A DNA stretch of 64,000 nucleotides from an uncultured bacterium. GTDB lineage: Bacteria > Krumholzibacteriota > Krumholzibacteriia > Krumholzibacteriales > CAZTHK01. Positions 3,113 to 64,000 of this stretch are shown here, piece after piece; position 1 is the stretch's first letter; each line of letters begins with the position of its first letter. The stretch spans positions 3,966 to 67,965 of the forward strand of contig CAZTHK010000016.1 of the NCBI GenBank assembly GCA_964613215.1, read 5' to 3'. Both the position numbers and the translations under genes were made by a program. The notes below the pieces were generated by a model. The model was given only the letters and a program-made list of their open reading frames with translations, was not told the origin of the DNA and did no database searches.

Positions 3113-3117
3113 ATAAG

Positions 3118-41345: not shown

Positions 41346-41620
41346 TATATTCCGGTAGTTATAAACCTTCGCTTATCGCCGGCATCCCCGGATGCTCTGA
41401 CTGGATATGGGAGATTTCTGCATAATCCGGTCAGCGGTATTAATGCTTGAATTCATCGGGGTAATCGAAATACGCAGAGTTATAGTTATAATTAATTAGC
41501 AGCCAGTGTGCAGCATTAAGAAATATTTTTTATTAATTGCCAGGCTTGATCAGCAAACGGCCATGATAGTTATCTGCAGTTTTCAGAATTGTTCGGATTA
41601 AATACAGAGAGGAGTAAAAA

Positions 41621-42814: not shown

Positions 42815-43056
42815 GTGATCAGCCGCTTGAAATGAAACAGACAGCACCAGGTGATCAACCAAGGTAACCAGAATGGCGGGGTTTTGATTATCAGAACGTG
42901 GCTGAGTGGAGTCCGAACTGATGGTTTCTGCCTGAGGGGGGGGTTGTTATAGCCGGTGTTACGGCTTTTATGGTGTTTGCATTCAGGATAACCGGGTGGG
43001 GGATATCGGATCAGTGCTTACATCTGCCATCCTGCAATAGTTGAACACCGCACCAT

Positions 43057-44466: not shown

Positions 44467-44550
44467 AGCGGGGATTATTATAAATCATGAAATTGCCCCG
44501 GCGGTTTAACAGGCTGGGGGCAGTATTTACTGAAAAGGCTGTTATTAATT

Positions 44551-45537
44551 ATGTTTGTAGACAGGGTCAGAATCAGGGTCAGGGCAGGAAAGGGCGGGGA
44601 TGGGGCAGTTAGTTTCAGGCGGCGCAAGTATATCCCCAAGGGGGGGCCGGACGGAGGTAATGGGGGTAAGGGTGGAGATGTGATCATCCGGGTGGATGAG
44701 AAGATGAAGACCCTGATCGATCTGCGGTACAAAGATACCTATGTAGCTGAAAACGGCAAACCGGGCGGGGGGGATAAGAAAACCGGCCGGAGCGGATCGG
44801 ATGTGATAGTGAGAGTTCCCCCGGGCTCTGTGGTGGAGGATCTCCAGAGCGGTGATACACTGGCGGACTTCGAAGGGGATGAAGGAAGCCTGGTAGCTGC
44901 CGGGGGAGGTAGAGGGGGAAGGGGTAATTTTACCTTCCGGTCATCCACCAATCAGGCTCCCCGTCAATTTACCAGGGGGAAGAAGGGGGAGCAGAGGGAA
45001 CTTCGGATTACTCTCAAACTGATTGCGGACGTAGGCCTGGTGGGTTTGCCCAATTCCGGTAAATCCACCCTGCTGGCTTCTCTGAGCCGAGCTCATCCTG
45101 CCATAGCTTCATATCCCTTCTCCACGGTGTATCCGGTGCTGGGAATTGTATCTGTAGATGTGGCTGCCTCTTACTGTATGGTGGATATTCCGGGGCTTAT
45201 AGAGGGGGCTCACCGGGGAAGGGGCCTGGGTCTGGAATTTCTCAGGCATGTGGAACGTTGCCGGGTGCTGCTGTTTGTGATAGATTCGGCCGGCCAGACC
45301 GAACCTGCTGATGCCTACCGCCAGCTGACGGAGGAGCTGAGCCGGTACAGCCCCGGGCTTCTGGAGAGGCCATGCTGTATTGCCCTGAATAAGATGGATC
45401 TCAAGGAAAGCAGGGAAAGAGGGATCGAACCGGGAGAAACTCACTGCAGAAGAATATTCAGAATATCCGCACTTACCGGGGAGGGGGTCAGGGAAATGTC
45501 AGGGAAGCTGTACCAGATGATCAGGGAGCAGGGATGA
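44551..45537 (+). CDS. obg: GTPase Obg/CgtA.
   Basis: Obg fold N-terminus MFVDRVRIRVRAGKGGDGAVSFRRRKYIPKGGPDGGNGGKGGDV. G-motifs GLPNSGKSTLL and DIPGLIEGA. Confidence 0.9.
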   Translation: MFVDRVRIRVRAGKGGDGAVSFRRRKYIPKGGPDGGNGGKGGDVIIRVDEKMKTLIDLRYKDTYVAENGKPGGGDKKTGRSGSDVIVRVPPGSVVEDLQSGDTLADFEGDEGSLVAAGGGRGGRGNFTFRSSTNQAPRQFTRGKKGEQRELRITLKLIADVGLVGLPNSGKSTLLASLSRAHPAIASYPFSTVYPVLGIVSVDVAASYCMVDIPGLIEGAHRGRGLGLEFLRHVERCRVLLFVIDSAGQTEPADAYRQLTEELSRYSPGLLERPCCIALNKMDLKESRERGIEPGETHCRRIFRISALTGEGVREMSGKLYQMIREQG

Positions 45538-45996
45538 TTATTACTTGATACTTATAAAAATTATCTCTTAAAAAGAAGATAATCTGCAGGTTTCGCAGTT
45601 GACTATCCCCTTATTATATGATAACATACGCCCGGTCAAGGAAGAGCAGAAGCGCATTTTATTATTTCAGGTAATTGTCAGATATTAAACTGGAAAGGGA
45701 AAGTATGGAAAATAGGCTAAAGTAGTATCATCTTTAGTTCATACATTCTATTCACCGGGAAAATTGATTTTATTTGGAGAGAAAACTCTATCTGGAGCGT
45801 TAATATCTATAGAGACAAGAGGTTAGTATAATCTGTAAGTTAAGCTGCTTATTCTAACCAAAAATATTATGAAAATGGAAAGCTGACTGGGGTCAGCATT
45901 CCAGATTTATCGTTAATTGTATGTGGTCACAAATAACGAATAGAGGGGATATGTTCGTCTCTGAATTGGGGTTACTGCCGAAAGCTCAAGGGAAGT

Positions 45997-48900: not shown

Positions 48901-49383
48901 CTTCCCCGGTATATGATCCCATCTGTTTTTATAATCATGATTAATCTCCCCCTTACCGAGAATGGGAAGCTGGACCGGGATTCTCTGCCTCATCCGGATA
49001 GTGTGGAGCTGGAACGCAGCAGTGAATATGTTGCTCCCCGGGATGAACTGGAGAGAAAAATTGTCTCCCTGTGGGAAGAATTACTGCAGGTGGATAAGAT
49101 CGGAGTGGATGATAATTTCTTTGATATAGGGGGACATTCCCTTCTGCTGGTTAAGGTCAACCAGAGACTGGAAGATATGTTCAACCGGAAGATACCGGTA
49201 GTGGATATGTTCAAGTATCCCACCGTGGCGGCACTGACCCGCTACCTTTCCGGAGAGGGCGGTGGAGAGCCCGGGTTCCAATCGAGCAGGAAGAGGGGAG
49301 AGGCAAGAAGAAAATCACTCCGCAGAAGGAGTCTGCGCCGTAAGAGCAGCAGGGGCAGCAGAAGAGAGGATAAGCATGGATGA
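45997..49383 (+). CDS. Non-ribosomal peptide synthetase module: C-A-T (1128 aa).
   Basis: C domain: SSAQQRLWFLD (C1) and HHIISDGWS (C3). A domain: LAYIIYTSGSTGQPKGV, NHYGPTE, YRSGD, GRLDDQIKIRGYRIE, NGKLDR. T domain: FFDIGGHSLL. A 50-aa basic leader precedes the C domain and the C-terminal tail is basic and RS-rich. The stop overlaps the start of the next gene. Confidence 0.9.
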   Translation: MNKDPRNPDRGSLSSAKRELLRRRLRGKSKSVSARGDIIPGSDRESAPLSSAQQRLWFLDRYETEQPVYNLPAAYRIRGALRPDILRRCLNHIALRHQVLRTVFRQVDGEPRQVIMEDMVIEMPVVDLSGFHPEERERKSMELAEQVAQRRFDLSRGPLIRASLFKLDRREYMLVFCLHHIISDGWSNHILIGELTELYEAFSEGREPELPELPVQYADFAAWQRERLNHEQLRKQLHYWEEKLKGAPPVLHLPTDTTRPPVQSFRGEYLEFDLEGYTAEALRQLSREENATLFMTLLSGFAVLLSRYSGQKDLVIGTPIANRNLYQVEKLIGFFVNTLAIRADLTGDPAFRQLVGRIRETALDAFSHQDIPFERIVEELRPERDLSRTPVFQVMYGHQNMPFLQMELTGLKIESIKMLSSTAKFDLIITTYSDPRGIHGYVNYNSDLFSGTTVKRMISHLKNILVNAADNPDLNISRIPMMTGEEKSRIVYKWNDTGESDYTGKLMHLMFEQQVRERPGEMAVVYPGGELTYRQLNSRVNHLAHYLIRKGVKPETRVGICMERSHQALTGLLAILKCGGVYIPLDPSYPSRRLSFMMADSGLNIILTGDETGEIDGVEGKMVINIDKEWKNIGKEDDSNPDVNISPGNLAYIIYTSGSTGQPKGVMLTHRGLANLVCWHRDEYRVKPDDRVTHMGNLSFDLSIWEVCPCLAAGACIFIPPGEVRLSPTRLVEWLESRDIALCTLPTPMAEEVMEEEWPGDIHLRAVFTGGDRLTKRPGEDLPFRLFNHYGPTEITVLATSGEVTSRQGEGYSPPSIGRAVSNTGVYILDENMQPVPPGVPGEICISGAGLARGYWNRPAVTASSFVPHPLNGGGGERLYRSGDRGRFLEDGSIEFMGRLDDQIKIRGYRIEPSGIEVVLNDHPGIRDAAVLLKDSRKTGDKILSCYVVPEEGSEPGADEIRSYLGERLPRYMIPSVFIIMINLPLTENGKLDRDSLPHPDSVELERSSEYVAPRDELERKIVSLWEELLQVDKIGVDDNFFDIGGHSLLLVKVNQRLEDMFNRKIPVVDMFKYPTVAALTRYLSGEGGGEPGFQSSRKRGEARRKSLRRRSLRRKSSRGSRREDKHG

Positions 49384-52300
49384 ATCCAGTGAATATACCG
49401 GACTGGATGATATTGCCGTCATAGCAATGGATGGACGTTTTCCGGAGGCTTCAGGAATCGAACAGTTCTGGAAGAACCTCTGCCAGGGCAGGGAATCGGT
49501 ATCATTCTTTTCCGATCAGGAGCTGCTGGAAAGCGGGGTGGATCCGGAAATGATAAACCATCCGGACTATGTCAAGGCAGGCGCGGTGCTGGATGATATC
49601 TATGACTTCGATGCCCCCTTCTTCGGTATAAGTCCCCGGAATGCGGAGTTGATGGATCCGCAGCAGCGGCTGTTTCTTCAGTGCTGCTGGGCTGTTCTGG
49701 AGAAGGCGGGTTATAACGGTGGAGATTGGGGGGAAGGGGTGGGGGTTTTTGCCGGGGTAGGGCCGGATAATTATTACCGCAACAATATCATGGCAAACCG
49801 GGAGGTCTTCCGGTCGGCCGGAAGCCTTCAGCCACTGCTGGGCAATGACCGTAACTTTCTCTCCACCATGGTGTCCTACCGGATGGATCTGAGAGGTCCT
49901 TCCCTTACCCTTCAGACAGCCTGCTCAACCTCCCTGGTGGCGGTGCATCTGGCCTGCCAGAGCCTGCTGAACGGGGAGTGTGATCTGGCCATGGCGGGAG
50001 GGGTGACCATAAATATACCTCAGAAGACCGGATATCTTTACAGGGAGGGTGGAATTCCCTCCCGGGATGGACACTGCCGGACCTTCGACCGGGATGCCAG
50101 CGGCACGGTTTTCGGTAACGGAGCGGCGGTGGTGGCTCTGAAGCGGCTGGAGGATGCTGTCCAGGATGGCGATTTCATTTATACGGTGATAAAGGGCTCT
50201 GCGGTTAACAATGATGGATCGTTCAAGGTAGGTTATACTGCTCCCGGCGTGAGGGGTCAGTCGGGGGCCATCACCGAGGCAATATCTGTATCGGGAGTGG
50301 ATCCGGCTAGCATTTCCATGGTGGAAGCCCACGGTACCGGCACCGTACTGGGTGATCCCATAGAGATAGAAGCACTCACCCAGGCATTTAGTCAGTTCAC
50401 CGGCAGAAAACAGTACTGTGCGGTAGGCTCGGTAAAGACCAATGTAGGACACCTGGACACTGCCGCCGGGGTAACCGGGCTGATCAAAGCGGCCCTCTCC
50501 CTGTACCATGGCAAGATTCCTCCCAGTCTCAACTACTCCCGTCCCAATCCCAAGATAGATTTCGAGAATAGTCCCTTCTTCGTCAATACGGAATTAATGG
50601 ATTGGGATGGGGGGGGAGTGCCCAGGAGGGCGGGAGTGAGTTCCTTCGGGCTGGGCGGAACCAATGCCCATATAGTGATGGAGGAACCTCCCCGGAGGGA
50701 GGAATCCAGCAGTTCGGAGAGGGCATATCAGCTGATTACCCTCTCCGCAGCCAGTGACACCGCCCTGGATAGTTATGCCGCCGGTCTGTTGGATTATCTG
50801 CATGAAAATGAAGAGGTAAAAGCTGAGGATGTAGCCTTTACCCTGCAGAAGGGCCGCAGAAGGATGCCTCATAGGTTGGCTGTAGTATCGCGTTCCTCCG
50901 GAGGGGCAGTGGAGATAATGGAGGGTAGTTCTTCAGCTGGAGTTTTAAAGAGGGTGGAAGACAGCAGCAACCGGGAGGTGGTGTTCATGTTTCCCGGCCA
51001 GGGTGCTCAGTATGTCAACATGGGTGCCGGACTGTATCATTCGGAGCCATCTTTTCGCCGGCAGGTGGACCATTGCGCAGAGCTGCTGAAGGGTAGTCTT
51101 GGTTTTGATATCAGGAGTATTATATATCCCGGTAATGTAGAGAAGGATAAGGCATCGGAGAAGCTTACCCAGACTGAGATCACCCAGCCGGCTCTTTTCG
51201 TGGTGGAATATTCCCTGGCCCGGCTCTGGATGGAGTGGGGGATTGAACCCTCTGCCATGACCGGACATAGTATCGGAGAATTTGTAGCGGCCTGCCTGGC
51301 GGGGGTGTTCTCCCTGGAGGATTGCCTCAAGCTGGTGGTAGAGAGGGGCAGGCTGATGCAGCAGATGCCTCCGGGAAGGATGCTGGCGGTATTTCTGCCT
51401 GAACAGGAGGTGATCCCCCTCCTGCCGGATAAAGTTTCTCTGGCGGCGGTCAACCGTCCCGATGTAACTGTGATATCTGGAACTGTCCAGGATATGAATA
51501 AAATGGAGGAGAAGCTCAAGGCTGCCGGTACCGGATACAGAAGGCTGCATACCTCTCATGCCTTTCATTCCCACATGATGGATCCCATTCTGGAACCCTT
51601 TACCAGAGCGGTCAGCGGAGCCAATCCTTCCCCTCCATCCATACCATATATATCCAATATCACCGGAACCTGGATGGAACCTGAACGGGCGGAGGATCCG
51701 GCCTGCTGGGCCCGCCAGCTGAGGCGTACAGTGAGATTCTCCGACGGTCTAAGGGAGCTGTTTCGGAGACCGGAGAGACTCCTCCTGGAGGTGGGTCCGG
51801 GGAGGACTCTGACCACCCTGTCCGGACAGCATCCCGACAGGGATAAACAGCAGGAGGTGCTGAATTGTATCCGCCATCCCAGGGAGGAGAAGCCGGACCA
51901 CCTGTTTCTGATGGAGACATTGGGGAAGTTATGGATGAGGGGAGTGGATATAAACTGGTCCGGGATTTATCAGGATGAAAAAAGACAGATTGTTCCTCTG
52001 CCCTCCTATCCCTTCCAGGGAAAGACCTACCGGATAGAGCCGGATAAACCGGGGAAGAGAACCAGCGCTTTAACCCGGCGGAGGGAGCGGGAAGATGGGT
52101 CGGCAGGCTGGATATACCGGGAGGCGTGGTATCCCTTACCCCTGAGGAATTCAGCGGGGAAAGATGTGGGGAAGAATGTGAAAGATCCTGTGATGATATT
52201 CTATTACAAGAATCCCATGGTAGAGAGGCTGGTGGAAGAATTTTCCAGGAGGGGATATCCGGTGATAAGGATAACCGGGGGAAGCAACTTTACCCGGGAG

Positions 52301-55066
52301 GGGAAGGACGGATATGTTATAGATTATCACAATCCGGAGGATTACCTTGAATTGATCAGGGAGCTCCGATCGGATGAAATGATTCCCGGAACGGTTATTT
52401 TTCCGGTTATTGATGGTAGTAGCGGCGAAGCTGATCCGGCCCCGGGCAGGGTGGAACATTGTTTGGCGAGGGGTTTCTTCGCCCCGGTATTTATGGCCCG
52501 GGCATGGGGAGAAGAGGGCAGGGAGGGGAATATCAGGATGGTTTTTCTCTCCTCTGATACTCATGTGACCGGAGGTGAAAAGGATTCCAATCCCCTTGGT
52601 TCGGTTGCTATGGGCCCGGCCATGGTGATTCCCCTGGAGTATCCCAACATTAAATGCCGCAGTGTGGATGTGGATATACCCCCGGAGGGGAGCTGGTATC
52701 AGGAAAGGCTCTGCCGGATGGTGGCGGATGACATGATATCCGGAGATGACGAGCAGGTGGTGGCCTACCGGAATAACAACAGGCTGGCCAGGGAGTTCAG
52801 GATAGTCCCTCCTTCACCCGCAGATGACTCCGGGCCGGGTTTAAAAGATAAGGGAGTTTACCTGATAACCGGAGGTATGGGGGGTATGGGTATGGCCCTG
52901 GCTTCATATCTGGCCGGCCGGTTCGGGGCCAAGCTGGTACTTACCGGAAGGTCTGAGCTTCTGCCCCGGAAGAAGTGGGATAGCTGGCTGAATGAGAATA
53001 ACCGGGAGGATAGGGTCTCGGTCATAATCAGGGGGATCAGGGAGATGGAGGATAAGGGGGGGGAGGTAGTGGTGGAGAGTGTGGATGCAGCTGACCTGGA
53101 GGGTATGAAGTCATTGAAGAAGAGGGTGGAGCAGAGATGGGGCAGGGTGGACGGAGTGATACATGCCGCCGGGGTGGAGGGAAGCGGAATAATACAGACC
53201 AAAACCAGGGAGATGGCAGAGAAGGTTTTTTCGCCCAAGATTGTGGGCACCCTGGTTCTTCATCAGGTATTCCCACCGGGGACCCTGGATTTTATGGCTG
53301 TATGTTCATCCCTTAACTCGGTTGTTCCTGTGGTGGGACAGTCGGATTACTGTACCGCCAGTGTATTTCAGGACAGGTTTGCCTCCTGCCGGAGTGCTCT
53401 CAGCGGAGACAACACTGTAGCCATAGGATGGGACCGGTGGAAGGAGACCGGTATGGCGGTGAAAGCTGAAAGTCCCCTCTGGCTGAGGGCTGCCGCGAGT
53501 GGATCAGCTGACCGGGTAGAGGGAGCTCCACTGGTGGAAAGAAGTGTTTCCACCGGAGGGGAGGATAGAATCTACTCCACCATAATGAAGGTAGAAGATT
53601 TCTGGATACTTGATGAACACAGGATCGGGGGAAAGAGTGTGGTGCCAGGTACCGCCTTCCTGGAGATGGCGGTAGAAGCATTTACCCGGGGTGAAGAAAG
53701 CAGAATGGTGGAGATAGAAGATGCATCATTCATGTCTCCCCTGGTTGTGGGGGAGGATGAGAGCAGGGAGGTGCTGACTGTACTTACCGGGGAGGGGGAC
53801 TGGACTGAATTTAATATTTCCAGCAGGGAAAAGAGGGGGCGGGGTGAAAGGGCGGAGTATATCCGCCACGCATCCGGCAGGATCAGATTCGCCGGTGAAG
53901 GAGAGGAGATCGAAGAGCCGGATCTGTCCGCCATAATGAACAGATGCAGCCGGAGAAGGGAGAAGCAGAAGAAGAGGGAGGGCAGTGATGAAGGTATAAT
54001 TGCCCAGTACGGTCCCCGCTGGGATGTGCTGGAGAAGATTAAACTGGGAGAGGGGGAGGCTATTGCCTCTCTGAAATTACCTGAAAATTTCAGGAGCGAT
54101 CTGGATGATTACTATCTGCATCCATCCCTTCTGGATATTGCCACAGGATTTGCCGCGGGATATGCCAAGAGGGGTAATTATCTCCCCTTCTGGTACCGGA
54201 GATTGAGGGTGTTGAAGCCCCTCACTGCTGAGATCTACAGCCATGCAAGATTCAGGGAGGGGGGAGAGGAATCAGGAGAAACGGTTAGCCTGGATGTGGC
54301 AATAATGGATAAGGGGGGAAATCTTCTGGCTGTTATCGATGAGTATACCATGAAGCGGGTGGAGCGATTCGGCCTTAACCAGGAAGGCAGATCAGATGAA
54401 GGGGAGGCTATTACCGGGAAGGATGCCCGGGGTAAAATGGGGGAGAGTGACCCTGCCGGAAAGGGAGGCGGAGGATTATCGAACCGGGAGGGGATAGAAA
54501 TATTCCGGAGGGTTATACAGGAAGGCATATCTCCTCAGGCTCTTGTTTCCAGGGAGAAGCTGAACCGGAGGGTGGAGGAGGCCGGGCAATTTACCATCAC
54601 CAGGATAGAGGAGGAGGTGGAAGCACTTCACCGCAGGGAAGGAGGACATTCCCGTCCACCCAACCTGGGTGAGTATGTAGAACCAAACAATCCGGTGGAG
54701 GAGAAGCTGGCCGAAATATGGCAGCATCTGCTGGGTATAGACCGGGTGGGGATAAGGGATAACTTCTTCGATCTGGGCGGGGATTCGGTGATAGGCCTGC
54801 GTATAGTGGTAAAAGCCAAGGAGAATTCGATTATACTGACTCCTCCCCAGCTATTCGAACATCAGACCATAGAAGAACTGGCCGGGGTGGCAGGCAGCAG
54901 GAGAGAGGATGCGGTAAAGCCGCAGGAACCGGAAGAGGAGGAAGCCGGCGAAGGGGAGAAAAAGGAGCTGAGTCCGGAGAATCTTCCCGGTGCCGAACTT
55001 AATCAGGAGGAGCTGAAGAAATTACTGAACAGGATTGACCGGGAGGGTAAGGATCAGGATCAATGA
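49376..55066 (+). CDS. Type I polyketide synthase module, KS-AT-KR-DH-ACP (~1897 aa).
   Basis: KS: TACSTSLVAVHLACQSLLNGECDLAMAGG, EAHGTGT, GSVKTNVGHL. AT: GHSIGEFVAACLAG and HAFHS (malonyl-type motif). KR Rossmann fold GVYLITGGMGGMGMAL plus SDYCTAS. DH: LDEHRIGGKSVVPG (HxxxGxxxxP) and HPSLLD. ACP: FFDLGGDSV. ATG 49376 overlaps the upstream stop by 8 nt; the track ORF started at an internal upstream Met (49262). Confidence 0.85.
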   Translation: MDESSEYTGLDDIAVIAMDGRFPEASGIEQFWKNLCQGRESVSFFSDQELLESGVDPEMINHPDYVKAGAVLDDIYDFDAPFFGISPRNAELMDPQQRLFLQCCWAVLEKAGYNGGDWGEGVGVFAGVGPDNYYRNNIMANREVFRSAGSLQPLLGNDRNFLSTMVSYRMDLRGPSLTLQTACSTSLVAVHLACQSLLNGECDLAMAGGVTINIPQKTGYLYREGGIPSRDGHCRTFDRDASGTVFGNGAAVVALKRLEDAVQDGDFIYTVIKGSAVNNDGSFKVGYTAPGVRGQSGAITEAISVSGVDPASISMVEAHGTGTVLGDPIEIEALTQAFSQFTGRKQYCAVGSVKTNVGHLDTAAGVTGLIKAALSLYHGKIPPSLNYSRPNPKIDFENSPFFVNTELMDWDGGGVPRRAGVSSFGLGGTNAHIVMEEPPRREESSSSERAYQLITLSAASDTALDSYAAGLLDYLHENEEVKAEDVAFTLQKGRRRMPHRLAVVSRSSGGAVEIMEGSSSAGVLKRVEDSSNREVVFMFPGQGAQYVNMGAGLYHSEPSFRRQVDHCAELLKGSLGFDIRSIIYPGNVEKDKASEKLTQTEITQPALFVVEYSLARLWMEWGIEPSAMTGHSIGEFVAACLAGVFSLEDCLKLVVERGRLMQQMPPGRMLAVFLPEQEVIPLLPDKVSLAAVNRPDVTVISGTVQDMNKMEEKLKAAGTGYRRLHTSHAFHSHMMDPILEPFTRAVSGANPSPPSIPYISNITGTWMEPERAEDPACWARQLRRTVRFSDGLRELFRRPERLLLEVGPGRTLTTLSGQHPDRDKQQEVLNCIRHPREEKPDHLFLMETLGKLWMRGVDINWSGIYQDEKRQIVPLPSYPFQGKTYRIEPDKPGKRTSALTRRREREDGSAGWIYREAWYPLPLRNSAGKDVGKNVKDPVMIFYYKNPMVERLVEEFSRRGYPVIRITGGSNFTREGKDGYVIDYHNPEDYLELIRELRSDEMIPGTVIFPVIDGSSGEADPAPGRVEHCLARGFFAPVFMARAWGEEGREGNIRMVFLSSDTHVTGGEKDSNPLGSVAMGPAMVIPLEYPNIKCRSVDVDIPPEGSWYQERLCRMVADDMISGDDEQVVAYRNNNRLAREFRIVPPSPADDSGPGLKDKGVYLITGGMGGMGMALASYLAGRFGAKLVLTGRSELLPRKKWDSWLNENNREDRVSVIIRGIREMEDKGGEVVVESVDAADLEGMKSLKKRVEQRWGRVDGVIHAAGVEGSGIIQTKTREMAEKVFSPKIVGTLVLHQVFPPGTLDFMAVCSSLNSVVPVVGQSDYCTASVFQDRFASCRSALSGDNTVAIGWDRWKETGMAVKAESPLWLRAAASGSADRVEGAPLVERSVSTGGEDRIYSTIMKVEDFWILDEHRIGGKSVVPGTAFLEMAVEAFTRGEESRMVEIEDASFMSPLVVGEDESREVLTVLTGEGDWTEFNISSREKRGRGERAEYIRHASGRIRFAGEGEEIEEPDLSAIMNRCSRRREKQKKREGSDEGIIAQYGPRWDVLEKIKLGEGEAIASLKLPENFRSDLDDYYLHPSLLDIATGFAAGYAKRGNYLPFWYRRLRVLKPLTAEIYSHARFREGGEESGETVSLDVAIMDKGGNLLAVIDEYTMKRVERFGLNQEGRSDEGEAITGKDARGKMGESDPAGKGGGGLSNREGIEIFRRVIQEGISPQALVSREKLNRRVEEAGQFTITRIEEEVEALHRREGGHSRPPNLGEYVEPNNPVEEKLAEIWQHLLGIDRVGIRDNFFDLGGDSVIGLRIVVKAKENSIILTPPQLFEHQTIEELAGVAGSRREDAVKPQEPEEEEAGEGEKKELSPENLPGAELNQEELKKLLNRIDREGKDQDQ

Positions 55067-58000
55067 TTGATAAATCAAAGATAAAGGATATTTATACCCT
55101 TTCCCCCCTTCAGGAGGGAATACTGTTTCACTGCCTCTACGATCCCGGCTCGGGGGTATATATCAACCAGTATGTAATGCCTCTGGGCGGGGATACTGAT
55201 TTCGATTCTCTGGAGCGAGCCTGGCAGATGGTGGTAAATCGCCATCCGGTGCTCCGCACCTCCTTTCACTGGGAAGAAATGGAGAGGCCTCATCAGGTGG
55301 TATACCGCAGTGCCGGCCTCCGGATGGAGAAACTGGACTGGAGTGATATATCACCCCGGGATAGGGAGGGAAAACTGGAGGAGTTTCTGAAGAGGGACCG
55401 GAGAAGAGGGTTCGATCTTTCCAGTGTCCCCCTGATGAGACTGATACTTATAAAAATGGGCCGGGATGACTACAGGCTGGTATGGGACAGCCACCATATC
55501 GTAATCGATGCCTGGTCCGGATCACTGATATGGCGGGAGGTTTTAAGCTATTACCGGTCCTTCATCACCGGAGAAGAGATCAGCCTGGAGAAGCCCAGGC
55601 CTTACCGGGACTACATCATGTGGTTGAGGGAACGGGATCTCTCCAGGGCGGAACAGTACTGGAGGGAGGAACTCAAGGGGTTTACCCAGCCTAACATTCT
55701 GGAAGGGGAATCTCCATCTTCCGGTATGGATGAGCAGAAGGGAGAGGAGGGATACGGCGATCAGTCAATTAACCTATCCTCCCATCTGACCAGAAGGCTT
55801 AAGGAATTCGCCCGACGGAACAGGCTGACCCTTAATACCCTGATTCAGGGAGCATGGGCTGTACTGCTGAGCCGGTACAGCGGACAGGAAGATGTAGTTT
55901 ATGGATCCACCACTTCGGGAAGACCGGCTGAACTGGAGGGGGTGGATTCCATGGTGGGCCTGTTCATCAATACCCTGCCGGTAAGGATAAGAGTAGAGGG
56001 CGACCGGGAGGTGGTTTCGTGGCTCAGGGAGCTCCAGGGCAAACTGACCAGGGTGAGGGAGTATGAGTATTCCCCCCTGATAAAGGTGATGGAGTGGAGC
56101 GAGGTACCATCCGGTCAGCAGTTATTCCAGACTATCGTGGTATTCGAGAATGTCCCCTCCGGGGGAGAAGATTCCGGAGGGGAAGGAGGGATTTCTTCCG
56201 GGCGGAGCAGGTTCCTGTTCAGCACCAACTATCCGGTTACCCTGGTGATAAATCCAATGTCGGTAATGGGGCTGAGAGTGGTGTATGACCATAATCTGTT
56301 CGGTGATTCCCTGATGGAGGGGTTGCTGGAGCATCTGGAGGTTTTGCTGGGTGGTGTGGCGGAGGATGAGGGGAGGAGGCTGAGGGATCTGGATATCATG
56401 GGGGATGAGGAGAGGGAGCGGATACTGTACCGCTGGAATGACACCGGTTGTGAGTATGGGGGCAGTGAGAGCCTGGCCGGTATGTTCCGTGAGGCTGCCG
56501 GGAGGTACGGTGAGAGGGAGGCGGTTGTCTGCGGGGATGAATCGATCAGCTATAGTGAGCTGGATGAACGTTCGGACTGTCTGGCTGGTTATCTCCGGGG
56601 TCTGGGTGTGGGGTTTGAGGATCAGGTGGGTGTATATATGCACCGGGGATTGGATATGATGGTATCGGTTCTGGGGATATTGAAGGGGGGAGGAGCCTAT
56701 GTGCCCCTGGACCGGGAGTATCCGGTGGAGAGGTTAAGCTATATGGTGGAGTGCAGCGGGATAGAGGTTGTACTGGTGAGTGGTGGCGGAGGTGGTTTGA
56801 TACCCGGGATCCGGGAGACAGATGTGCTGGGGGATTGGGATGAGATATCGGTCTGCCGGGACAGCTGTCCCGGAGATGGGGTGAGTGGGGATAGTGTTGG
56901 GTATGTACTGTACACCTCCGGGTCCACGGGCAGGCCCAAGGGGGTATTGATGCCGGTGGGCAGTCTGGTGAATCTGATAAGGTGGCAGGTGGATGAGTTT
57001 GGAGATGAGGGAGCGGGTAGGAGGGTGTTGCAGTTTGCCTCGTTGAGTTTTGATGTATCGTTTCAGGAGATGTTTTCCACCTGGGTAAGCGGGGGAGTGG
57101 TGGATGTGGTTTCGTCTGAGGTTAAGAAGGATCCGGAGAGGTTGTGGGGGCATATAGCTGAGAGGGGTATAGAGAGGGTATTTTTGCCCTTTGTGGCGTT
57201 ACAGCAGCTGGCCGGGGTGTCGGGAGGAGGTATGAGGGGGAGTGAGTTGAAGGAGGTAATAACGGCTGGGGAGCAGTTGAGGGTGACTGAGTCTGTACGG
57301 GAGATGTTCCGCGGCAGTGGTTGCCGGCTGATAAATCAGTACGGGCCTACCGAGACGCATGTGGTTACGGCGGAGTGGCTGGGGGATGATGTGGATAGCT
57401 GGGAGGTATTGCCGTCGATAGGTGCTCCGGTTTCCAATGTGAGGTTATATCTTCTGGATGGGGATCTGGAGCCGGTACCGGTGGGAGTTGAGGGGGAGTT
57501 GTATGTGGGGGGTTCAGCTGTTTCGAGGGGGTATGGAGGGGAGGGAGGCAGGACGGCTGAGAGTTATCTGCCGGACCGGTATGGGGGAGGTGGCGGGAGG
57601 TTGTATGCTACCGGTGATATTGGCAGGTATCGTCCGGACGGGCGTATTGATTTTATTGGCAGGAGGGATGATCAGGTAAAGGTCAGGGGCTACCGGGTGG
57701 AGTTGGGAGAGGTTGAGAGTGTGTTGTGCGGATATGAGGGGGTCAGGGATGCGGTGGTGGTGAGCAGGGAGTATGAGGGCACCGGGGTTGGATTGACCGG
57801 GTATCTGATTATGGATGGAGATATTGAGGTGGATGGTTTGCGGGATTATCTGGGGGACCGTTTACCCGGCTATATGATACCGGCGGAATTTATCCGGGTG
57901 GATGAGTTTCCTCTGACCCCCAGCGGGAAGGTTGACCGTTCCGGGCTGCCTGAGCCGGAGGGGAGGAGGATCAGCAGGGGAGGGGAGTATGTTGCGCCGG

Positions 58001-58356
58001 AGACGGAGGTGGAGGAGGCGCTGGCTTCAGTTTGGTCGGAGATACTGGGTTTGGACCGGGTTGGCGTGGAGGACAACTTTTTTGAGCTGGGAGGGCATTC
58101 CCTTCTGGCTACCCGGGTGGTGTCGAGGGTGAGGGAGATGTTCCAGATAGAGCTTCCCCTGAGAACCCTGTTCGAGAAACCGGAACTCAAAAATCTGGCC
58201 GGAGAGATAGAGAAAATAGTGGAGGGGGGAGAGAGCAAATCTGCTCCGGAGATAAAACCGCTGGCCAGGGAGAAGAGGATAATAGATGAACTGGATGAGA
58301 TTACGGATGAAAAGGCAGGAAAAAGACTTAATCAGGAAGATAGAACAAATGAATAG
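55063..58356 (+). CDS. NRPS module C-A-T (1097 aa).
   Basis: C domain LSPLQEGILFH (C1) and HHIVIDAWS. A domain YVLYTSGSTGRPKGV, NQYGPTETHV, YATGDIGRY, GRRDDQVKVRGYRVE, PSGKVDR. T domain FFELGGHSLL. ATGA overlap with the PKS stop. Confidence 0.9.
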   Translation: MIDKSKIKDIYTLSPLQEGILFHCLYDPGSGVYINQYVMPLGGDTDFDSLERAWQMVVNRHPVLRTSFHWEEMERPHQVVYRSAGLRMEKLDWSDISPRDREGKLEEFLKRDRRRGFDLSSVPLMRLILIKMGRDDYRLVWDSHHIVIDAWSGSLIWREVLSYYRSFITGEEISLEKPRPYRDYIMWLRERDLSRAEQYWREELKGFTQPNILEGESPSSGMDEQKGEEGYGDQSINLSSHLTRRLKEFARRNRLTLNTLIQGAWAVLLSRYSGQEDVVYGSTTSGRPAELEGVDSMVGLFINTLPVRIRVEGDREVVSWLRELQGKLTRVREYEYSPLIKVMEWSEVPSGQQLFQTIVVFENVPSGGEDSGGEGGISSGRSRFLFSTNYPVTLVINPMSVMGLRVVYDHNLFGDSLMEGLLEHLEVLLGGVAEDEGRRLRDLDIMGDEERERILYRWNDTGCEYGGSESLAGMFREAAGRYGEREAVVCGDESISYSELDERSDCLAGYLRGLGVGFEDQVGVYMHRGLDMMVSVLGILKGGGAYVPLDREYPVERLSYMVECSGIEVVLVSGGGGGLIPGIRETDVLGDWDEISVCRDSCPGDGVSGDSVGYVLYTSGSTGRPKGVLMPVGSLVNLIRWQVDEFGDEGAGRRVLQFASLSFDVSFQEMFSTWVSGGVVDVVSSEVKKDPERLWGHIAERGIERVFLPFVALQQLAGVSGGGMRGSELKEVITAGEQLRVTESVREMFRGSGCRLINQYGPTETHVVTAEWLGDDVDSWEVLPSIGAPVSNVRLYLLDGDLEPVPVGVEGELYVGGSAVSRGYGGEGGRTAESYLPDRYGGGGGRLYATGDIGRYRPDGRIDFIGRRDDQVKVRGYRVELGEVESVLCGYEGVRDAVVVSREYEGTGVGLTGYLIMDGDIEVDGLRDYLGDRLPGYMIPAEFIRVDEFPLTPSGKVDRSGLPEPEGRRISRGGEYVAPETEVEEALASVWSEILGLDRVGVEDNFFELGGHSLLATRVVSRVREMFQIELPLRTLFEKPELKNLAGEIEKIVEGGESKSAPEIKPLAREKRIIDELDEITDEKAGKRLNQEDRTNE
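56294..57328 (+). repeat. Copy 1 of a >=1035-bp perfect direct repeat (A-domain coding segment of the 55063..58356 NRPS).
   Basis: Identical to 62966..64000 at an offset of 6672 nt (a multiple of 3). Spot-checked at several positions. Identical peptides in all frames of the ORF track (e.g. 56405..56659 equals 63077..63331). Confidence 0.9.
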
Positions 58357-58374
58357 ATCAGGAATTAAGTAGAA

Positions 58375-61300
58375 ATGACTGATAAATCATATATGTTTCC
58401 CCTTTCATTTGCCCAGCAGAGGCTCTGGTTCATGGAGCAGCTGGCTCCGGGTAAGCCCTTCTACAATCTGCCGTCGGCTCTGGATATAGAAGGGCCTCTG
58501 GAGGCAGAGATAATTAAGAAGAGCCTGAATGAGATAGTGAGTAGACACGAAACACTGCGTACCTGCTTTAAGAATGTGGATGGTGAACCCAGACAGGTGG
58601 TGCTGGATGCGGTGGAATTTGAAATGCCTCTGATCGATCTTTCCGGTATTCCTCCGGAGGAGCGCAGCAGAAAGGCTGATTCAATCTGCGCAGAGGAGGG
58701 GGTGAAACCGTTCCATCTTTCCTCTCCTCCGCTGTTCAGGGCCAGGCTGTTAAGAATGAACCGGCTGGAGCATATTCTGATATTCAATATACACCATATA
58801 ATAGCAGACGGCTGGTCTATGGGGGTGCTGATGGATGAAATCAAGAAGCTGTACAATATATTTTCAGGTGATAGCGGGGGCAAGCTGCCCTCTCTCCCCA
58901 TCCAGTACGCAGATTATGCGGTATGGCAGAGGAGGCATCTCAGGGGAAGGGTGATGGAATTGCATCTGGAGTACTGGAAGAAGAAGCTGGAGGGAGCTCC
59001 ACCTGTTCTGAGTCTCCCTTCGGACAGGCCCAGACCACCGGTTCCCAGCTTTACCGGGGACAACTATAATTTCCGGCTATCCGGCCATATCCATGATAGG
59101 GTTATCAGAATCTCGCGGGATCAGGGAGTTACCAGCTATATGATATTCATGGCTGCATTTGCTGCTCTGCTCTCCCGTTACAGCTGCCAGGATGATATGG
59201 TGGTAGGTTTTCCCATCGCCAACAGAACCAGGGCGGAGCTGGAAAAACTGATAGGATTCTTCGTCAATACCCTGGTTCTGCGTATCGGCCTCTCCGGCGA
59301 TCCCACCCTGAAGGAACTGATCCGAAGGGTCAGGGAGGTGGCTCTGGATGCTTACCAGCACCAGGATCTGCCCTTCGAGGTGCTGGTAAGGGAGTTGAGC
59401 CCGGAGAGGGATATCAGCATGAATCCCATCTGTCAGGTAGTGCTGGCCATGCAGAACACACCCCCCGATACAGAGGAGATCGAGGGACTGGAGATACATC
59501 ACCGGGAGATAAAGACCGGGACCACCCGCTTCGACATCGCTCTGCATATAAGGGAGGAGAAAGATGGAGGAGGGGTATTCACCGGCAACTGCATATACAG
59601 CACCGATCTGTTCGACCGTTCCACCATAGCCGGGATGGTGGATAACCTGGTAAAACTGCTGGAGCAGGGATTATCGGATCCCGGCCTTCCCCTCTCCAAC
59701 ATATCCCTGATGGATGCTGAAGAGGAAAGAAAGATTCTGATTGATTGGAACAGCACCGGGCGAGAATTATCCGGTCCGGGTACCATCCACGGAATGGTGG
59801 AGAAAGCGGTGGCTGTACATCCCGATGATACTGCGGTGGAGTGTATGGGTGATGACAGCAGGTTATCATACCGTGAGCTCGATTCAATGGCCGGACGGAT
59901 AGCCGCATTTCTGATCAGAAGAGAGCTGGGGAGGGAGGCTGCAGTGGGGGTATGTATGAGGCGTTCACCCGGTATGGTGGCTGCAGTACTGGGTATCCTC
60001 AGGGCGGGGATGGCATTTGTGCCAATGGATCCCGGCTATCCGGAGGAGCGCCTGAAATATATCACCGGCGATTCCGGTTCGGAGATTGTGATAACAGATA
60101 TCCTTCCGGCGGATTGCCGGTTGGGTGAAGGGACAGAGGTGGTTAAAATTGATACAATAGTGGAAAATCAGCATCCTGCCCGGGAACCCGCCGCCATTCC
60201 GGTTAAGGGAGATAACCTGGCTTACATTCTGTATACTTCCGGTACCACCGGAAGGCCCAAGGGGGTTATGATACAGCATTCCAGTGTGGTCAATTATACA
60301 AGCTGGGTATTGGAGAACCTCACCGGTGAGGGCTGTGTTATCCCCCTCTCCACCGGCCTGGTCTTCGATGCCTCCCTTAAGCAACTGTTTGGTTCACTGG
60401 CCTCCGGCAGGGGGGTGAAGATAGTTTCGGAAGAGGACCTCCTCGATCCGGAGGAGCTGTGCCGCTATTTGAGCAGTTTCAGCTCTGTTGCCTTCAACTG
60501 CGTACCATCCCTGTGGGAGACATTGATCGGAACACTGCAGGATCGGCGGGATAAAAATATGGATATGCCTGTAGACAGGCTGCTGCTGGGGGGAGAGAGC
60601 CTGAGCAGTGATCTGGTGGATAGAACCAGGGAAGTTCTGCCCGGTACGGAGATATGGAACCTTTACGGTCCCACCGAAACAACCGCCAATGTTACCGCAG
60701 CCATTCTGAACCGGAGGGGAGGGGTACCCATAGGGAGACCCCTTTGGAATACCCGGGTCTATGTACTGGATTGGGAGATGAAGCCTGTTGGCAGGGGTAT
60801 TCCCGGAGAACTTTATGTGGGTGGAATGGGAGTGGCAAGAGGATATCTAAACCGCCCCGCCCTGACCGCGGAAAGATTTGTTCCCCATCCCTTCGGTGAG
60901 GGGGAGAGGCTCTACCGCACCGGTGATCTGGTAAGATGGAATGAGGATGGAGAACTCGAATTTATCCGCCGGCTGGATGATCAGATAAAATTGAGAGGAT
61001 TTAGAATAGAACCTCAGGAGATAGAATCGGTACTGAGGAATTACCAGGGGGTGAAAGATTCATATGTAACACTCTGGGAAGGGGATGCAGGGGAGAGTAT
61101 GCTTGCGGCCTATATTTCGGGACCTTCCGGAATCTCCGGGGATAAGTTGAGGAGTTACCTGGCCGGGGAGCTTCCCTCCTATATGATTCCATCTGCTTAT
61201 GTATGGATGGAAGAATTACCGCGTGATAGTGCGGGCAGGTTAAACCGGGAACAGCTTCCCCCGCCCGGAATAGAGGGAACCGCCGAAGAGAAGGATCAGC

Positions 61301-61629
61301 ATCCCAGAAACGAGGTAGAGGAGGTTATCTCCGGAATATTCGGGGAGGTGGCGGGTGTGGACAGGGTGGGGATACATCAGGATTTCTTCACTCAACTGGG
61401 AGGTCATTCCCTGCTGGCCACTCAGCTGATGCTGCGTTTGAGGGATATACTCAGGTTCGAGGTGGATCTGCAGAATATCTTCCGCAGGCCCACAGTAGCG
61501 GGCCTGGCCGAACTGGCTGTGGAAGATCCCCGCAACCGGGAGAGGGTCAGAAAGGTGGCCCGGCATCTGATTGCCATAAGTAAACTCACAGATGAAGAAG
61601 TTGACCGAATGCTGTCGGAGGACCAGTGA
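58375..61629 (+). CDS. NRPS module C-A-T (1084 aa).
   Basis: C: SFAQQRLWFMEQ, HHIIADGWS. A: LAYILYTSGTTGRPKGV, NLYGPTETT, YRTGDLVRW, RRLDDQIKLRGFRIE, SAGRLNR. T: FFTQLGGHSLL. Confidence 0.9.
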   Translation: MTDKSYMFPLSFAQQRLWFMEQLAPGKPFYNLPSALDIEGPLEAEIIKKSLNEIVSRHETLRTCFKNVDGEPRQVVLDAVEFEMPLIDLSGIPPEERSRKADSICAEEGVKPFHLSSPPLFRARLLRMNRLEHILIFNIHHIIADGWSMGVLMDEIKKLYNIFSGDSGGKLPSLPIQYADYAVWQRRHLRGRVMELHLEYWKKKLEGAPPVLSLPSDRPRPPVPSFTGDNYNFRLSGHIHDRVIRISRDQGVTSYMIFMAAFAALLSRYSCQDDMVVGFPIANRTRAELEKLIGFFVNTLVLRIGLSGDPTLKELIRRVREVALDAYQHQDLPFEVLVRELSPERDISMNPICQVVLAMQNTPPDTEEIEGLEIHHREIKTGTTRFDIALHIREEKDGGGVFTGNCIYSTDLFDRSTIAGMVDNLVKLLEQGLSDPGLPLSNISLMDAEEERKILIDWNSTGRELSGPGTIHGMVEKAVAVHPDDTAVECMGDDSRLSYRELDSMAGRIAAFLIRRELGREAAVGVCMRRSPGMVAAVLGILRAGMAFVPMDPGYPEERLKYITGDSGSEIVITDILPADCRLGEGTEVVKIDTIVENQHPAREPAAIPVKGDNLAYILYTSGTTGRPKGVMIQHSSVVNYTSWVLENLTGEGCVIPLSTGLVFDASLKQLFGSLASGRGVKIVSEEDLLDPEELCRYLSSFSSVAFNCVPSLWETLIGTLQDRRDKNMDMPVDRLLLGGESLSSDLVDRTREVLPGTEIWNLYGPTETTANVTAAILNRRGGVPIGRPLWNTRVYVLDWEMKPVGRGIPGELYVGGMGVARGYLNRPALTAERFVPHPFGEGERLYRTGDLVRWNEDGELEFIRRLDDQIKLRGFRIEPQEIESVLRNYQGVKDSYVTLWEGDAGESMLAAYISGPSGISGDKLRSYLAGELPSYMIPSAYVWMEELPRDSAGRLNREQLPPPGIEGTAEEKDQHPRNEVEEVISGIFGEVAGVDRVGIHQDFFTQLGGHSLLATQLMLRLRDILRFEVDLQNIFRRPTVAGLAELAVEDPRNRERVRKVARHLIAISKLTDEEVDRMLSEDQ

Positions 61630-61650
61630 GTCATAAGAAGGAGAGAGATT

Positions 61651-64000
61651 TTGAACCGTTTCGATCTGTCCGATAAGGAGCGCCGTTTACTGGAGAAGAT
61701 GCTCGAAGCGGATGGGGTGGAAGCTTCAGCCGGAAGTATCAAACCCGGAGACAAGGAGGGTGAAATCCCCCTCTCCTATGCCCAGGAGAGACTCTGGTTC
61801 ATGGATCAGCTTATGCCGGAAAGTCCCTTCTACAATGAGATATCCGCATTCAGGACAGGAATGCCGGTAGACCGCTCCGCCATGGAACGAAGTATTAACA
61901 TGATCGTCCGGCGTCACCAGGTGCTCAGAACCTCCTTTCAGTCCAGGGAGGGCAGGCCCTATCAGAAGATACTGCCCCGGCTTGAGATAAAACTGGAGTA
62001 TACCGACCTCAGTGCATTGAGTGAACAGGAGCGGGAGGAGAGAGTACAGTCTATTGCCACCGAAGAGGTAAGAAAGCCCTTTGAACTGAGCAGCCCGCCC
62101 CGTATCAGAACCAGGTTGATCAAAACGGATGAACAGAGTTACGTGCTGTTGATAACCAAACATCATATTATTTCGGATGCCTGGTCCATCGGCGTTTTTA
62201 TCAGGGAATTATCTCAACTTTACCGTTCCTGTATCCGGAAGGAAGAACCATCTCTGCCCCGGCTTCCCATCCAGTATGCCGATTATGCCATCTGGCAGAG
62301 GGAATGGCTGGAAGGGGAGCTGCTGGAGAAACAGCTGTCATACTGGAGAAACAAGCTGGAAGGAGCCCCCTCCCGCTATACTCTTCCCCTCTCCGGAAAG
62401 AGGCCCCCGGTGGAGACATTCAGGGGAAGGAGGGTGAAAAGGAAGCTTTCCGGCCAGTTGGTTTCTTCGCTGAGATCCCTGTGCAGCAGGGAGAATGTTA
62501 CCATGTTCATGCTGATGATGGCGGCTTTCCAGACATTACTGTACCGGTACACCGGCCGGGGTGACACAGTGGTGGGTACCGGCATAGCCAACCGGAACAG
62601 GCCGGAGCTGGAGAATCTGATTGGCTTTTTTGTCAATACTCTGGTAATAAGGGTGGATATGTCGGATAATCCCACCTTCTCCGGGCTGCTCCGGAGGGTC
62701 AGGGAGACCACCCTGGAGGCATACCAGAATCAGGATGTTCCTTTCGAGAAACTGGTGGAAGAGATCCGGCCGGAGCGGGATCTGAGCAGCTCCCCACTGT
62801 TCCAGATAGCCCTCTTTTTCGAAAGCAATATGGCGCCCCGGGTGGATCTGGCCCGGTTAAACTTCGAGCCGATGGAGGTGGAGAGGGGCACCTCCAAGTT
62901 CGACCTTATTCTGTTTGTAACCGAGCAGGAAGAAAACATTACCTTCACCGCCGAGTACAACGTGGATCTGTTCGGTGATTCCCTGATGGAGGGGTTGCTG
63001 GAGCATCTGGAGGTTTTGCTGGGTGGTGTGGCGGAGGATGAGGGGAGGAGGCTGAGGGATCTGGATATCATGGGGGATGAGGAGAGGGAGCGGATACTGT
63101 ACCGCTGGAATGACACCGGTTGTGAGTATGGGGGCAGTGAGAGCCTGGCCGGTATGTTCCGTGAGGCTGCCGGGAGGTACGGTGAGAGGGAGGCGGTTGT
63201 CTGCGGGGATGAATCGATCAGCTATAGTGAGCTGGATGAACGTTCGGACTGTCTGGCTGGTTATCTCCGGGGTCTGGGTGTGGGGTTTGAGGATCAGGTG
63301 GGTGTATATATGCACCGGGGATTGGATATGATGGTATCGGTTCTGGGGATATTGAAGGGGGGAGGAGCCTATGTGCCCCTGGACCGGGAGTATCCGGTGG
63401 AGAGGTTAAGCTATATGGTGGAGTGCAGCGGGATAGAGGTTGTACTGGTGAGTGGTGGCGGAGGTGGTTTGATACCCGGGATCCGGGAGACAGATGTGCT
63501 GGGGGATTGGGATGAGATATCGGTCTGCCGGGACAGCTGTCCCGGAGATGGGGTGAGTGGGGATAGTGTTGGGTATGTACTGTACACCTCCGGGTCCACG
63601 GGCAGGCCCAAGGGGGTATTGATGCCGGTGGGCAGTCTGGTGAATCTGATAAGGTGGCAGGTGGATGAGTTTGGAGATGAGGGAGCGGGTAGGAGGGTGT
63701 TGCAGTTTGCCTCGTTGAGTTTTGATGTATCGTTTCAGGAGATGTTTTCCACCTGGGTAAGCGGGGGAGTGGTGGATGTGGTTTCGTCTGAGGTTAAGAA
63801 GGATCCGGAGAGGTTGTGGGGGCATATAGCTGAGAGGGGTATAGAGAGGGTATTTTTGCCCTTTGTGGCGTTACAGCAGCTGGCCGGGGTGTCGGGAGGA
63901 GGTATGAGGGGGAGTGAGTTGAAGGAGGTAATAACGGCTGGGGAGCAGTTGAGGGTGACTGAGTCTGTACGGGAGATGTTCCGCGGCAGTGGTTGCCGGC
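61651..64000 (+). CDS. NRPS module, 5' partial (C domain plus the start of an A domain). Continues beyond the window.
   Basis: TTG at 61651 after RBS aaggagagag. An alternative ATG is at 61696. C domain: LSYAQERLWFMDQ, HHIISDAWS. The open frame continues into an A domain (YVLYTSGSTGRPKGV) and runs to the window edge. It is absent from the ORF track because it is truncated. Confidence 0.85.
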   Translation, partial: MNRFDLSDKERRLLEKMLEADGVEASAGSIKPGDKEGEIPLSYAQERLWFMDQLMPESPFYNEISAFRTGMPVDRSAMERSINMIVRRHQVLRTSFQSREGRPYQKILPRLEIKLEYTDLSALSEQEREERVQSIATEEVRKPFELSSPPRIRTRLIKTDEQSYVLLITKHHIISDAWSIGVFIRELSQLYRSCIRKEEPSLPRLPIQYADYAIWQREWLEGELLEKQLSYWRNKLEGAPSRYTLPLSGKRPPVETFRGRRVKRKLSGQLVSSLRSLCSRENVTMFMLMMAAFQTLLYRYTGRGDTVVGTGIANRNRPELENLIGFFVNTLVIRVDMSDNPTFSGLLRRVRETTLEAYQNQDVPFEKLVEEIRPERDLSSSPLFQIALFFESNMAPRVDLARLNFEPMEVERGTSKFDLILFVTEQEENITFTAEYNVDLFGDSLMEGLLEHLEVLLGGVAEDEGRRLRDLDIMGDEERERILYRWNDTGCEYGGSESLAGMFREAAGRYGEREAVVCGDESISYSELDERSDCLAGYLRGLGVGFEDQVGVYMHRGLDMMVSVLGILKGGGAYVPLDREYPVERLSYMVECSGIEVVLVSGGGGGLIPGIRETDVLGDWDEISVCRDSCPGDGVSGDSVGYVLYTSGSTGRPKGVLMPVGSLVNLIRWQVDEFGDEGAGRRVLQFASLSFDVSFQEMFSTWVSGGVVDVVSSEVKKDPERLWGHIAERGIERVFLPFVALQQLAGVSGGGMRGSELKEVITAGEQLRVTESVREMFRGSGCR
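62966..64000 (+). repeat. Copy 2 of the perfect direct repeat, truncated by the window edge.
   Basis: See copy 1. The identity begins exactly at the C-A linker (…DLFGDSLMEGLLEHLEVLLGG) of the last NRPS gene. Confidence 0.9.

Follow-up and report, generated by a model that had tools for sequence, protein, structure and literature searches.

An exact 1,919-nt repeat with strong G+T skew shared by two nonribosomal peptide synthetase modules of an uncultured Krumholzibacteriota bacterium

The 64,000-nt stretch of contig CAZTHK010000016.1 examined in this study (positions 3,966 to 67,965 of the forward strand, analysed as a whole and hereafter called the window) contains a hybrid assembly line of nonribosomal peptide synthetase (NRPS) and polyketide synthase (PKS) genes, numbered g1 to g5. 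Two of these, gene 3 (g3) and gene 5 (g5), are separately encoded single-module NRPS proteins, each with a condensation (C), an adenylation (A) and a thiolation (T) domain in the order C-A-T. The two genes share an exact repeat of 1,919 nt, which was probably produced by the recent, non-reciprocal copying of a cassette between the g3 and g5 modules, and whose composition is of the type described for GRINS, genetic repeats with intense nucleotide skews.

Direct comparison of window positions 56294-57328 with 62966-64000 gave identity at 1035 of 1035 bases, as an initial annotation of this DNA had reported, and the offset between the copies (6672 nt) is a multiple of three, which keeps the reading frame, as that annotation had also recognized. 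Immediately upstream of the repeat, at the same offset, identity is only ~25-45%, in agreement with the earlier description of the upstream sequences as different. The annotation had described a segment of at least 1 kb and left both its full length and its 3' breakpoint open. A protein search with the truncated g5 recovered the full-length g5 (P0001, 1101 aa) and returned g3 as P0002, each on record for an NCBI contig of 97,217 nt, and comparison of the two proteins located the breakpoint: residues 440-1078 of P0001 are identical to residues 412-1050 of g3 (639 of 639), and because this identity ends at nt 58212 in g3, the full repeat covers 56294-58212. The duplication first described is therefore real, with a true length of 1,919 nt. 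Copy 2 extends from 62966 to ~64884, an end that is predicted from the protein identity and lies beyond the window; exact look-ups of g3 and P0001 in a contig index gave no record. The tails that follow the repeat are wholly different (KIVEGGESK... in g3 and GILTREIENM... in g5). A simple tandem duplication was considered and ruled out, because the sequence after copy 2 (the g5 tail) differs from that after copy 1 (the g3 tail).

In an alignment of the four NRPS modules, both repeat edges line up, with the breakpoints in frame and at homologous positions. All four modules share a conserved Y-x-x-[D/N]-L-F motif, and the 5' edge falls on it, at g3 residue 411/412. The Pfam Condensation match extends 44 residues further, and the W-NATE linker site (WNDTG, g3 residue 458) lies 46 residues downstream of the edge. 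The breakpoint had earlier been placed exactly at the C-A linker, a position that does not hold, with Condensation ending at residue 455, WNDTG at 458 and AMP-binding starting at 475. The description of the repeat as an A-domain segment also has to be replaced: copy 1 comprises the C domain's final ~44 residues (beginning with the LF of Y-x-x-N-LF), the C-A linker, the complete A domain and the complete T domain, with WNDTG at nt 56434, A3 at 56911, A10 at 57925 and FFELGGHS at 58078. At the 3' end, identity stops directly after LAGEIE, which places this edge past the final T-domain helix and 45 residues downstream of FFELGGHS. Pfam matches in g3 are Condensation (residues 8-455), AMP-binding (475-824), AMP-binding_C (883-956) and PP-binding (986-1047). 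The C3 motif HHxxxD is present in both g3 and g5 (HHIVIDAWS and HHIISDAWS), and the repeated block contains YTSGSTGRPKG, NQYGPTE, YATGD, GRRDDQVKVRGYRVELGEVE, PSGKVDR and FFELGGHSL, representing the sets A3, A5, A7, A8, the A10 lysine and the T-domain serine. Both modules are motif-complete and, judged from these motifs, are predicted to be elongation modules that would be active. The map of the assembly line is given below, where Logan contigs are those of the independent assembly considered in the next paragraph.

45997..49383, + strand: g1, an NRPS C-A-T module whose N-terminal extension is docking-like (Pfam Condensation, AMP-binding, AMP-binding_C and PP-binding; also on a Logan contig)
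49376..55066, + strand: g2, a PKS with ketosynthase (KS), acyltransferase (AT), ketoreductase (KR), dehydratase (DH) and acyl carrier protein (ACP) domains (Pfam coordinates; start 49376 as on the Logan contig, the longest open reading frame (ORF) starting at 49262)
55063..56293, + strand: unique part of g3, the C domain to the repeat edge (residues 1-410 and the first base of codon 411; Condensation at residues 8-455; ordinary composition, GC skew 0.17)
56294..58212, + strand: repeat copy 1, 1,919 nt, strongly G+T-skewed (defined by identity, domain landmarks, skew and change-points, and Logan breaks)
58213..58356, + strand: C-terminal tail of g3 (KIVEGGESK...NQEDRTNE), a putative docking region, unlike the g5 tail
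58375..61629, + strand: g4, an NRPS C-A-T module between the copies and outside the repeat (Pfam; whole gene on Logan contig L001)
61666..62965, + strand: unique part of g5, an N-terminal docking-like extension and the C domain to the repeat edge (P0001 starts MNRFDLS; Pfam Condensation; GC skew 0.07)
62966..64000, + strand: repeat copy 2, visible part (predicted to continue to ~64884, followed by a 23-residue tail, GILTREIENMSEEEARRLLDQDD)

Logan contigs of run SRR7048228 carry the locus in pieces, and the same contigs were found in four samples. One contig equals window positions 39868-56323 and another (L001) equals 58183-62995. The contig ends at 56323, 58183 and 62995 each lie 30 nt inside a repeat edge, marking three of the four junctions, because a de Bruijn graph with k=31 breaks in this way at a two-copy repeat. 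The repeat end at 58212 was predicted from the start of the Logan contig before the protein comparison gave the same position. In addition, the contig covering 58183-62995 is unbroken through the g3 tail, g4 and the C domain of g5, so that only one linear order is compatible with the data, A-R-BC-R-D, that is, C(g3)-R-[tail, g4, C(g5)]-R-tail(g5). These observations bear on the possibility of a chimeric mis-join, in which sequence from another organism would have been spliced into both genes at conserved NRPS motifs. The block is indeed unlike everything around it in composition, and conserved motifs common to NRPS genes can confuse metagenome assemblers; however, a mis-join is very improbable, as k-mers would have to match exactly at four junctions although the sequences involved are elsewhere only ~50% identical, both genes are in-frame, complete C-A-T modules with all core motifs, the same contig breaks appear in four samples, and no alternative native A-T segment for g3 or g5 was found among the homologues.

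The assembly evidence also raises the possibility that both copies are real and that their perfect identity is a product of assembly, with bubbles between near-identical copies having been collapsed and the event being older than it appears. The Logan de Bruijn contigs break precisely at the repeat edges, which shows that the repeat is a single shared path in the k=31 graph; the source is a 97-kb contig of an uncultivated organism and thus probably a metagenome assembly; and GRINS copies in PKSs are typically 75-98% identical rather than 100% (PMC8256042). On the other hand, A-T duplicates with 100% identity are on record for other NRPSs (5 pairs among 150 deposited proteins), and the identity edges are razor-sharp and in frame, with no variant in the data, which are assembled sequence and not reads. 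An identity created by assembly is therefore possible but not likely.

Within the cluster, the match between the copies stands far from the ordinary relationship of modules. Other A-T units in the cluster share ~50% nucleotide and 39% amino-acid identity, so that chance or ordinary paralogy cannot explain it. The C domains of g3 and g5 are 33% identical in amino acids and 45% in nucleotides; they are divergent, as previously stated, but not unrelated in the strict sense. The wider baseline consisted of 846 A-T units from 150 large NRPSs of an exhaustive representative search, a set dominated by giant multi-module NRPSs, and yielded 22 within-protein A-T pairs with at least 95% identity, of which five are 100% identical along the entire unit. 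The duplication alone is thus ordinary across NRPSs, though it is a clear outlier within its own cluster. The five 100% pairs occur in P0463, P0424 (three copies) and P0414, and are ~620-640 residues long and of ordinary composition. Most duplicated A-T pairs in the baseline are unskewed, and skew is therefore no general consequence of duplication. The same exhaustive representative search returned no near relatives.

What most sets the block apart, and was absent from the initial annotation, is an extreme G+T skew that is confined to it. Guanine makes up 42.5% of the block and its GC skew is 0.48, compared to 0.172 +/- 0.053 (maximum 0.313) for stretches of the same length elsewhere in the window; G+T reaches 66.5% against a background of 53.1 +/- 1.9% (z = 7.1), and the TA skew is reversed in sign (about +0.13 versus -0.06 in the background). 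The skews are strongest at third codon positions (GC 0.55 and TA 0.44, compared to 0.11-0.17 and 0.01-0.17 in neighbouring domains), and codon usage is shifted, with GAG encoding 64 of 68 glutamates in the block (275 of 438 elsewhere in the cluster) and TTG encoding 20 of 65 leucines (31 of 479 elsewhere). Maximum-likelihood change-points in G versus C were placed at 56316 in g3 (support 56235-56351) and at 62985 in g5 (support 62953-63010), and these intervals bracket the 5' identity edges at 56294 and 62966. Compared to 224 homologous A-T segments, the encoded protein is rich in glycine (15.3% versus 7.6 +/- 1.4%, z = 5.6) and in Gly, Val, Cys and Trp together (28.8% versus 17.8 +/- 2.4%, z = 4.6), with Cys and Trp themselves only slightly raised (z = 0.9 each), and poor in Pro, Thr, His and Gln (8.9% versus 17.7 +/- 2.1%, z = -4.2). 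None of the 846 baseline A-T units is as skewed as the block. Runs of G occur roughly twice as often as they do in the other A-T units (83 versus 41-49 for G3+ and 34 versus 17-18 for G4+) and runs of C are depleted (12 versus 28-38); no canonical G-quadruplex motif (four G3+ runs) was found in the block.

GRINS are defined as regions of >500 bp with >80% identity to another region of the same cluster and with mean absolute GC and TA skews >0.15 in 150-nt windows at a 30-nt step (Nivina et al. 2021, PMC8256042). Their skews are strongest at third positions, positively skewed members encode more Gly, Val, Cys and Trp and less Pro, Thr, His and Gln, and a correlation of GC with TA skew across windows (r about 0.7) is typical of them although outside the formal definition; they occur mainly in Streptomyces PKS genes, are rare in Proteobacteria and Bacteroidetes, and include some cases in NRPS modules (PMC8256042). 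The block exceeds the length threshold (1,919 nt) and the identity threshold (100% over the visible 1035 nt, the remainder being protein-identical), and its mean absolute GC skew is 0.494 in copy 1 and 0.512 in the visible part of copy 2, compared to 0.178 in the rest of the cluster. Both skews shift together toward G+T relative to the flanks, and the third-position and amino-acid pattern of GRINS was likewise found in the block. As with GRINS, a long, near-perfect repeat joins paralogous modules of one assembly-line cluster, intense GC skew is accompanied by joint enrichment of G and T, with Gly and Val raised and Pro, Thr, His and Gln lowered, and the repeat covers the domain that selects the building block, so that both modules are predicted to pick the same one. 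Unlike typical GRINS, the block lies in an NRPS of an uncultivated Gram-negative host with ~52% GC rather than in a Streptomyces PKS, is uniformly positive with no abrupt sign changes, and is present in two copies only, which are 100% identical. By this comparison, the block would best be called GRINS-type rather than a certified member, and may represent a new case in an NRPS and in a new lineage.

There is a further potential explanation for the repeat, namely that the cassette is foreign to both modules and that, with neither module as donor to the other, DNA from a third source (another cluster or organism) replaced the A-T segment in both g3 and g5. Composition changes at the 5' identity edge in both genes with neither host C domain sharing the signature, and codon usage in the block is unlike that of the whole rest of the cluster. 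Furthermore, the closest relative of the block, P0125 (L006; JGI 3300057013, Ga0568886_0035885; ~52-54% identity), comes from a metagenomic organism with ~68% GC, is likewise skewed, and shares with the block the A-domain class FDVSFQE...NQYGPTESHVV. Its skewed segment (GC skew 0.55, TA skew 0.20) has a mean absolute GC skew of 0.552 and a mean absolute TA skew of 0.214, both above the GRINS thresholds. It has sharp edges, starting within the C-A linker at nt 2298 (support 2294-2308), 20 residues ahead of WNETD, and ending at nt 3991 (support 3947-4063), at FFxxGGxS; the contig is only 4.9 kb long. The C domain of P0125 is unskewed (GC skew 0.04), however, and an unskewed C domain beside a skewed A-T segment can therefore be a stable state of a single module. 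A foreign origin is unlikely on other grounds as well. A search of 5.8 billion protein clusters, which cover the rest of this assembly as well, gave no third copy and no donor or other relative above ~52%, and a single insertion with a subsequent internal copy is a more parsimonious account than two independent insertions that share the same edges. Transfer alone would also not explain the composition, as we know of no organism in which a GC skew of 0.48 is the genomic norm.

How the skew itself was generated was considered under the tautomer/transition model of the GRINS authors, in which A>G and C>T changes occur on the coding strand. Among amino-acid replacements relative to the homologue consensus, the block scored 0.62 against 0.41 +/- 0.13 (z = 1.6, not significant), while the same test on P0125 gave 0.86 (z = 3.4). 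Many replacements in the block are of C>G type (L>V, A>G, P>G), and the model is weakly supported here.

Copying between g3 and g5 remains the probable origin of the repeat. Through gene conversion or template switching, one module would have supplied the cassette to the other, and the incoming copy would have exchanged everything that selects and carries the monomer while the bodies of the C domains were kept. The cassette ends exactly at the start of the C-terminal docking tails, and these tails, which set the protein order, would have stayed intact. The earlier proposal of homologous recombination or gene conversion is right in kind, given divergent C domains beside exact, in-frame A-T segments, and the very recent event that it envisaged is supported by the exact identity, from which we infer recency.

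Several observations weigh against this reading or limit it. At the 5' junction, no long flanking homology is visible, and conversion of the classical RecA type is therefore no more than a candidate mechanism. Nucleotide identity was seen directly for 1035 of the 1,919 nt, the rest being identity at the protein level, and in a short-read graph assembly, a path through the loop A-R-BC-R-D yields both copies from the same edge of the graph, which may hide a few real differences between them. The composition signal does not follow the repeat throughout: the 3' change-point in g3 lies at 57855 (support 57829-58156), before the identity edge at 58212, with the signal fading near the T-domain motif. 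The mean absolute TA skew (0.138 in copy 1 and 0.141 in copy 2) falls narrowly short of the GRINS threshold of 0.15, and GC and TA skew are uncorrelated across the windows of the block (r = -0.02), because its skew is uniform and does not alternate in sign. Finally, no orthologous cluster was found in the databases searched, where the best non-self matches reach 43-52%. A scan of the GTDB representative genomes with g4 gave only Paenibacillus loci with 33-34% identity, so that neither the source genome nor a close relative is represented there, and among the C-domain partners of this A-domain class, which were examined in an attempt to separate donor from recipient, both g3-type and g5-type C domains occur (42-48% identity).

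Comparable exchanges are known from other NRPSs. In microcystin synthetase, mcyB1 and mcyC have A domains that are up to 97% alike while the C domains share 26-28%, and the recombined tract runs from A1 to A10 and into the T domain (Fewer et al. 2007, PMC2174460). The present case resembles mcyB1/mcyC in that the A-T segments are far more alike (100%) than the C domains (33%) and that the breakpoints are in frame and homologous; it differs in that the block includes the whole T domain and ~44 C-domain residues, is 100% identical and has no related strains for comparison, while no skew has been reported for mcy. Most exchanges described by Baunach et al. (2021, PMC8097286) do not go beyond the A-core, with the linker, the A-sub domain and the T interface all retained, whereas in the block the linker, A-sub and T move together. 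A breakpoint within the T domain, at FFxxGGxS, has been described by Bozhuyuk et al. (2022 preprint, 10.1101/2022.12.02.518901), and the boundaries of A-domain exchange are treated by Calcott et al. (2020, PMC7486941). Identity in the block runs 45 residues past FFxxGGxS, although the composition signal fades near that motif. The block is therefore one of the larger exchange units.

Only one pair in the baseline, in P0434, is both duplicated (95%) and clearly skewed. Its repeat covers residues ~2700-3615 and ~4814-5729, from the HHxxxD motif of the C domain to just past FFxxGGxS, and is rich in Gly and Val and poor in Pro, Thr, His and Gln (index 0.16-0.17); the exchange unit differs from that of the block. 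From the three instances (the block, P0125/L006 and P0434), a tentative and rather doubtful generalization can be drawn, in which G+T skew would mark a class of mobile linker-A-T cassettes in NRPSs of unrelated bacteria, a counterpart of the GRINS of PKSs, with skew edges on recombination hotspots. The proposed hotspots would be the C-domain end or the C-A linker on the 5' side and FFxxGGxS or the T-domain end on the 3' side. It might also be that the skewed, G-rich non-template strand itself promotes copying.

The two best solved matches to the binding-pocket segment of the block are TycB1 and GrsB1, which load proline in the synthesis of tyrocidine and gramicidin S. The block code DVQFIAQVVK agrees with that of TycB1 (DVQLIAHVVK) at 8 of 10 positions, the differences being at 278 (F for L) and 322 (Q for H). 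LgrA, the best match in the PDB at 711 bits, was set aside, as its score is the sum of two A domains (342 + 368 bits) and is uninformative on specificity. On the evidence of the pocket residues, the A domain of the block is predicted to accept a proline-like substrate. The product should then contain a proline-like residue twice, the same in both places, with a single residue in between; the same amino acid at two positions of the product had been predicted earlier, and the identical A domain of the two modules supports this.

The module between the copies has features of its own. The A domain of g4 has Arg in place of the conserved A10 Lys near residue 954 (LPRDSAGRLNREQLP versus PLTxxGKxDR in the other modules), g4 has no Pfam AMP-binding_C match at E<=1e-5, and its A4 region reads FDASLKQ; judged by these departures, the A domain may be non-canonical or impaired. 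In g2, the Pfam order is KS, AT, KR (residues 1198-1395), DH-type domains (1423-1702) and ACP, and a dehydratase after the ketoreductase is not the usual order of a cis-AT PKS. The g2 region at ~52.1-54.5 kb also has raised skews, with GC skew up to 0.31. Overlaps of 8 nt between g1 and g2 (49376-49383) and of 4 nt between g2 and g3 (55063-55066) suggest translational coupling, and gaps of 18 nt and 36 nt separate g3 from g4 and g4 from g5.

Upstream of the assembly line, the window encodes a type IV pilus system (a PilB-like ATPase, PilM, PilN, a secretin, a PilS/PilR-like two-component pair and a prepilin peptidase), as well as a POTRA protein, a TonB-dependent receptor, urocanase and Obg. 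The best matches to Obg share at most 64% identity, and those with a name are MAGs of Krumholzibacteriota and Latescibacteria. Nearly all long, Pfam-supported ORFs lie on the + strand, and GC skew is positive throughout the window, with a monotonic rise of the cumulative skew, a pattern consistent with a leading-strand segment with strong gene-strand bias. Two + strand ORFs, at 390-1328 (312 aa) and 3037-6507 (1156 aa), had no Pfam match at E<=1e-5, and Rfam gave no match in the window.

The movement of a whole linker-A-T unit between separately encoded modules, with the bodies of the C domains and the docking tails left in place, offers guidance on boundaries for NRPS engineering. As a perfect direct repeat of 1.9 kb, the duplication also predicts an in-frame deletion variant without two modules. 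GRINS were described almost entirely from Streptomyces PKS genes, with NRPSs receiving no more than a passing mention; an NRPS case from a remote and uncultivated lineage, along with a skewed cassette that belongs to the same A class but comes from an unrelated high-GC organism, suggests that the process is neither PKS-specific nor actinomycete-specific. If the class of skewed cassettes were to prove general, DNA skew profiles could map natural exchange units directly.

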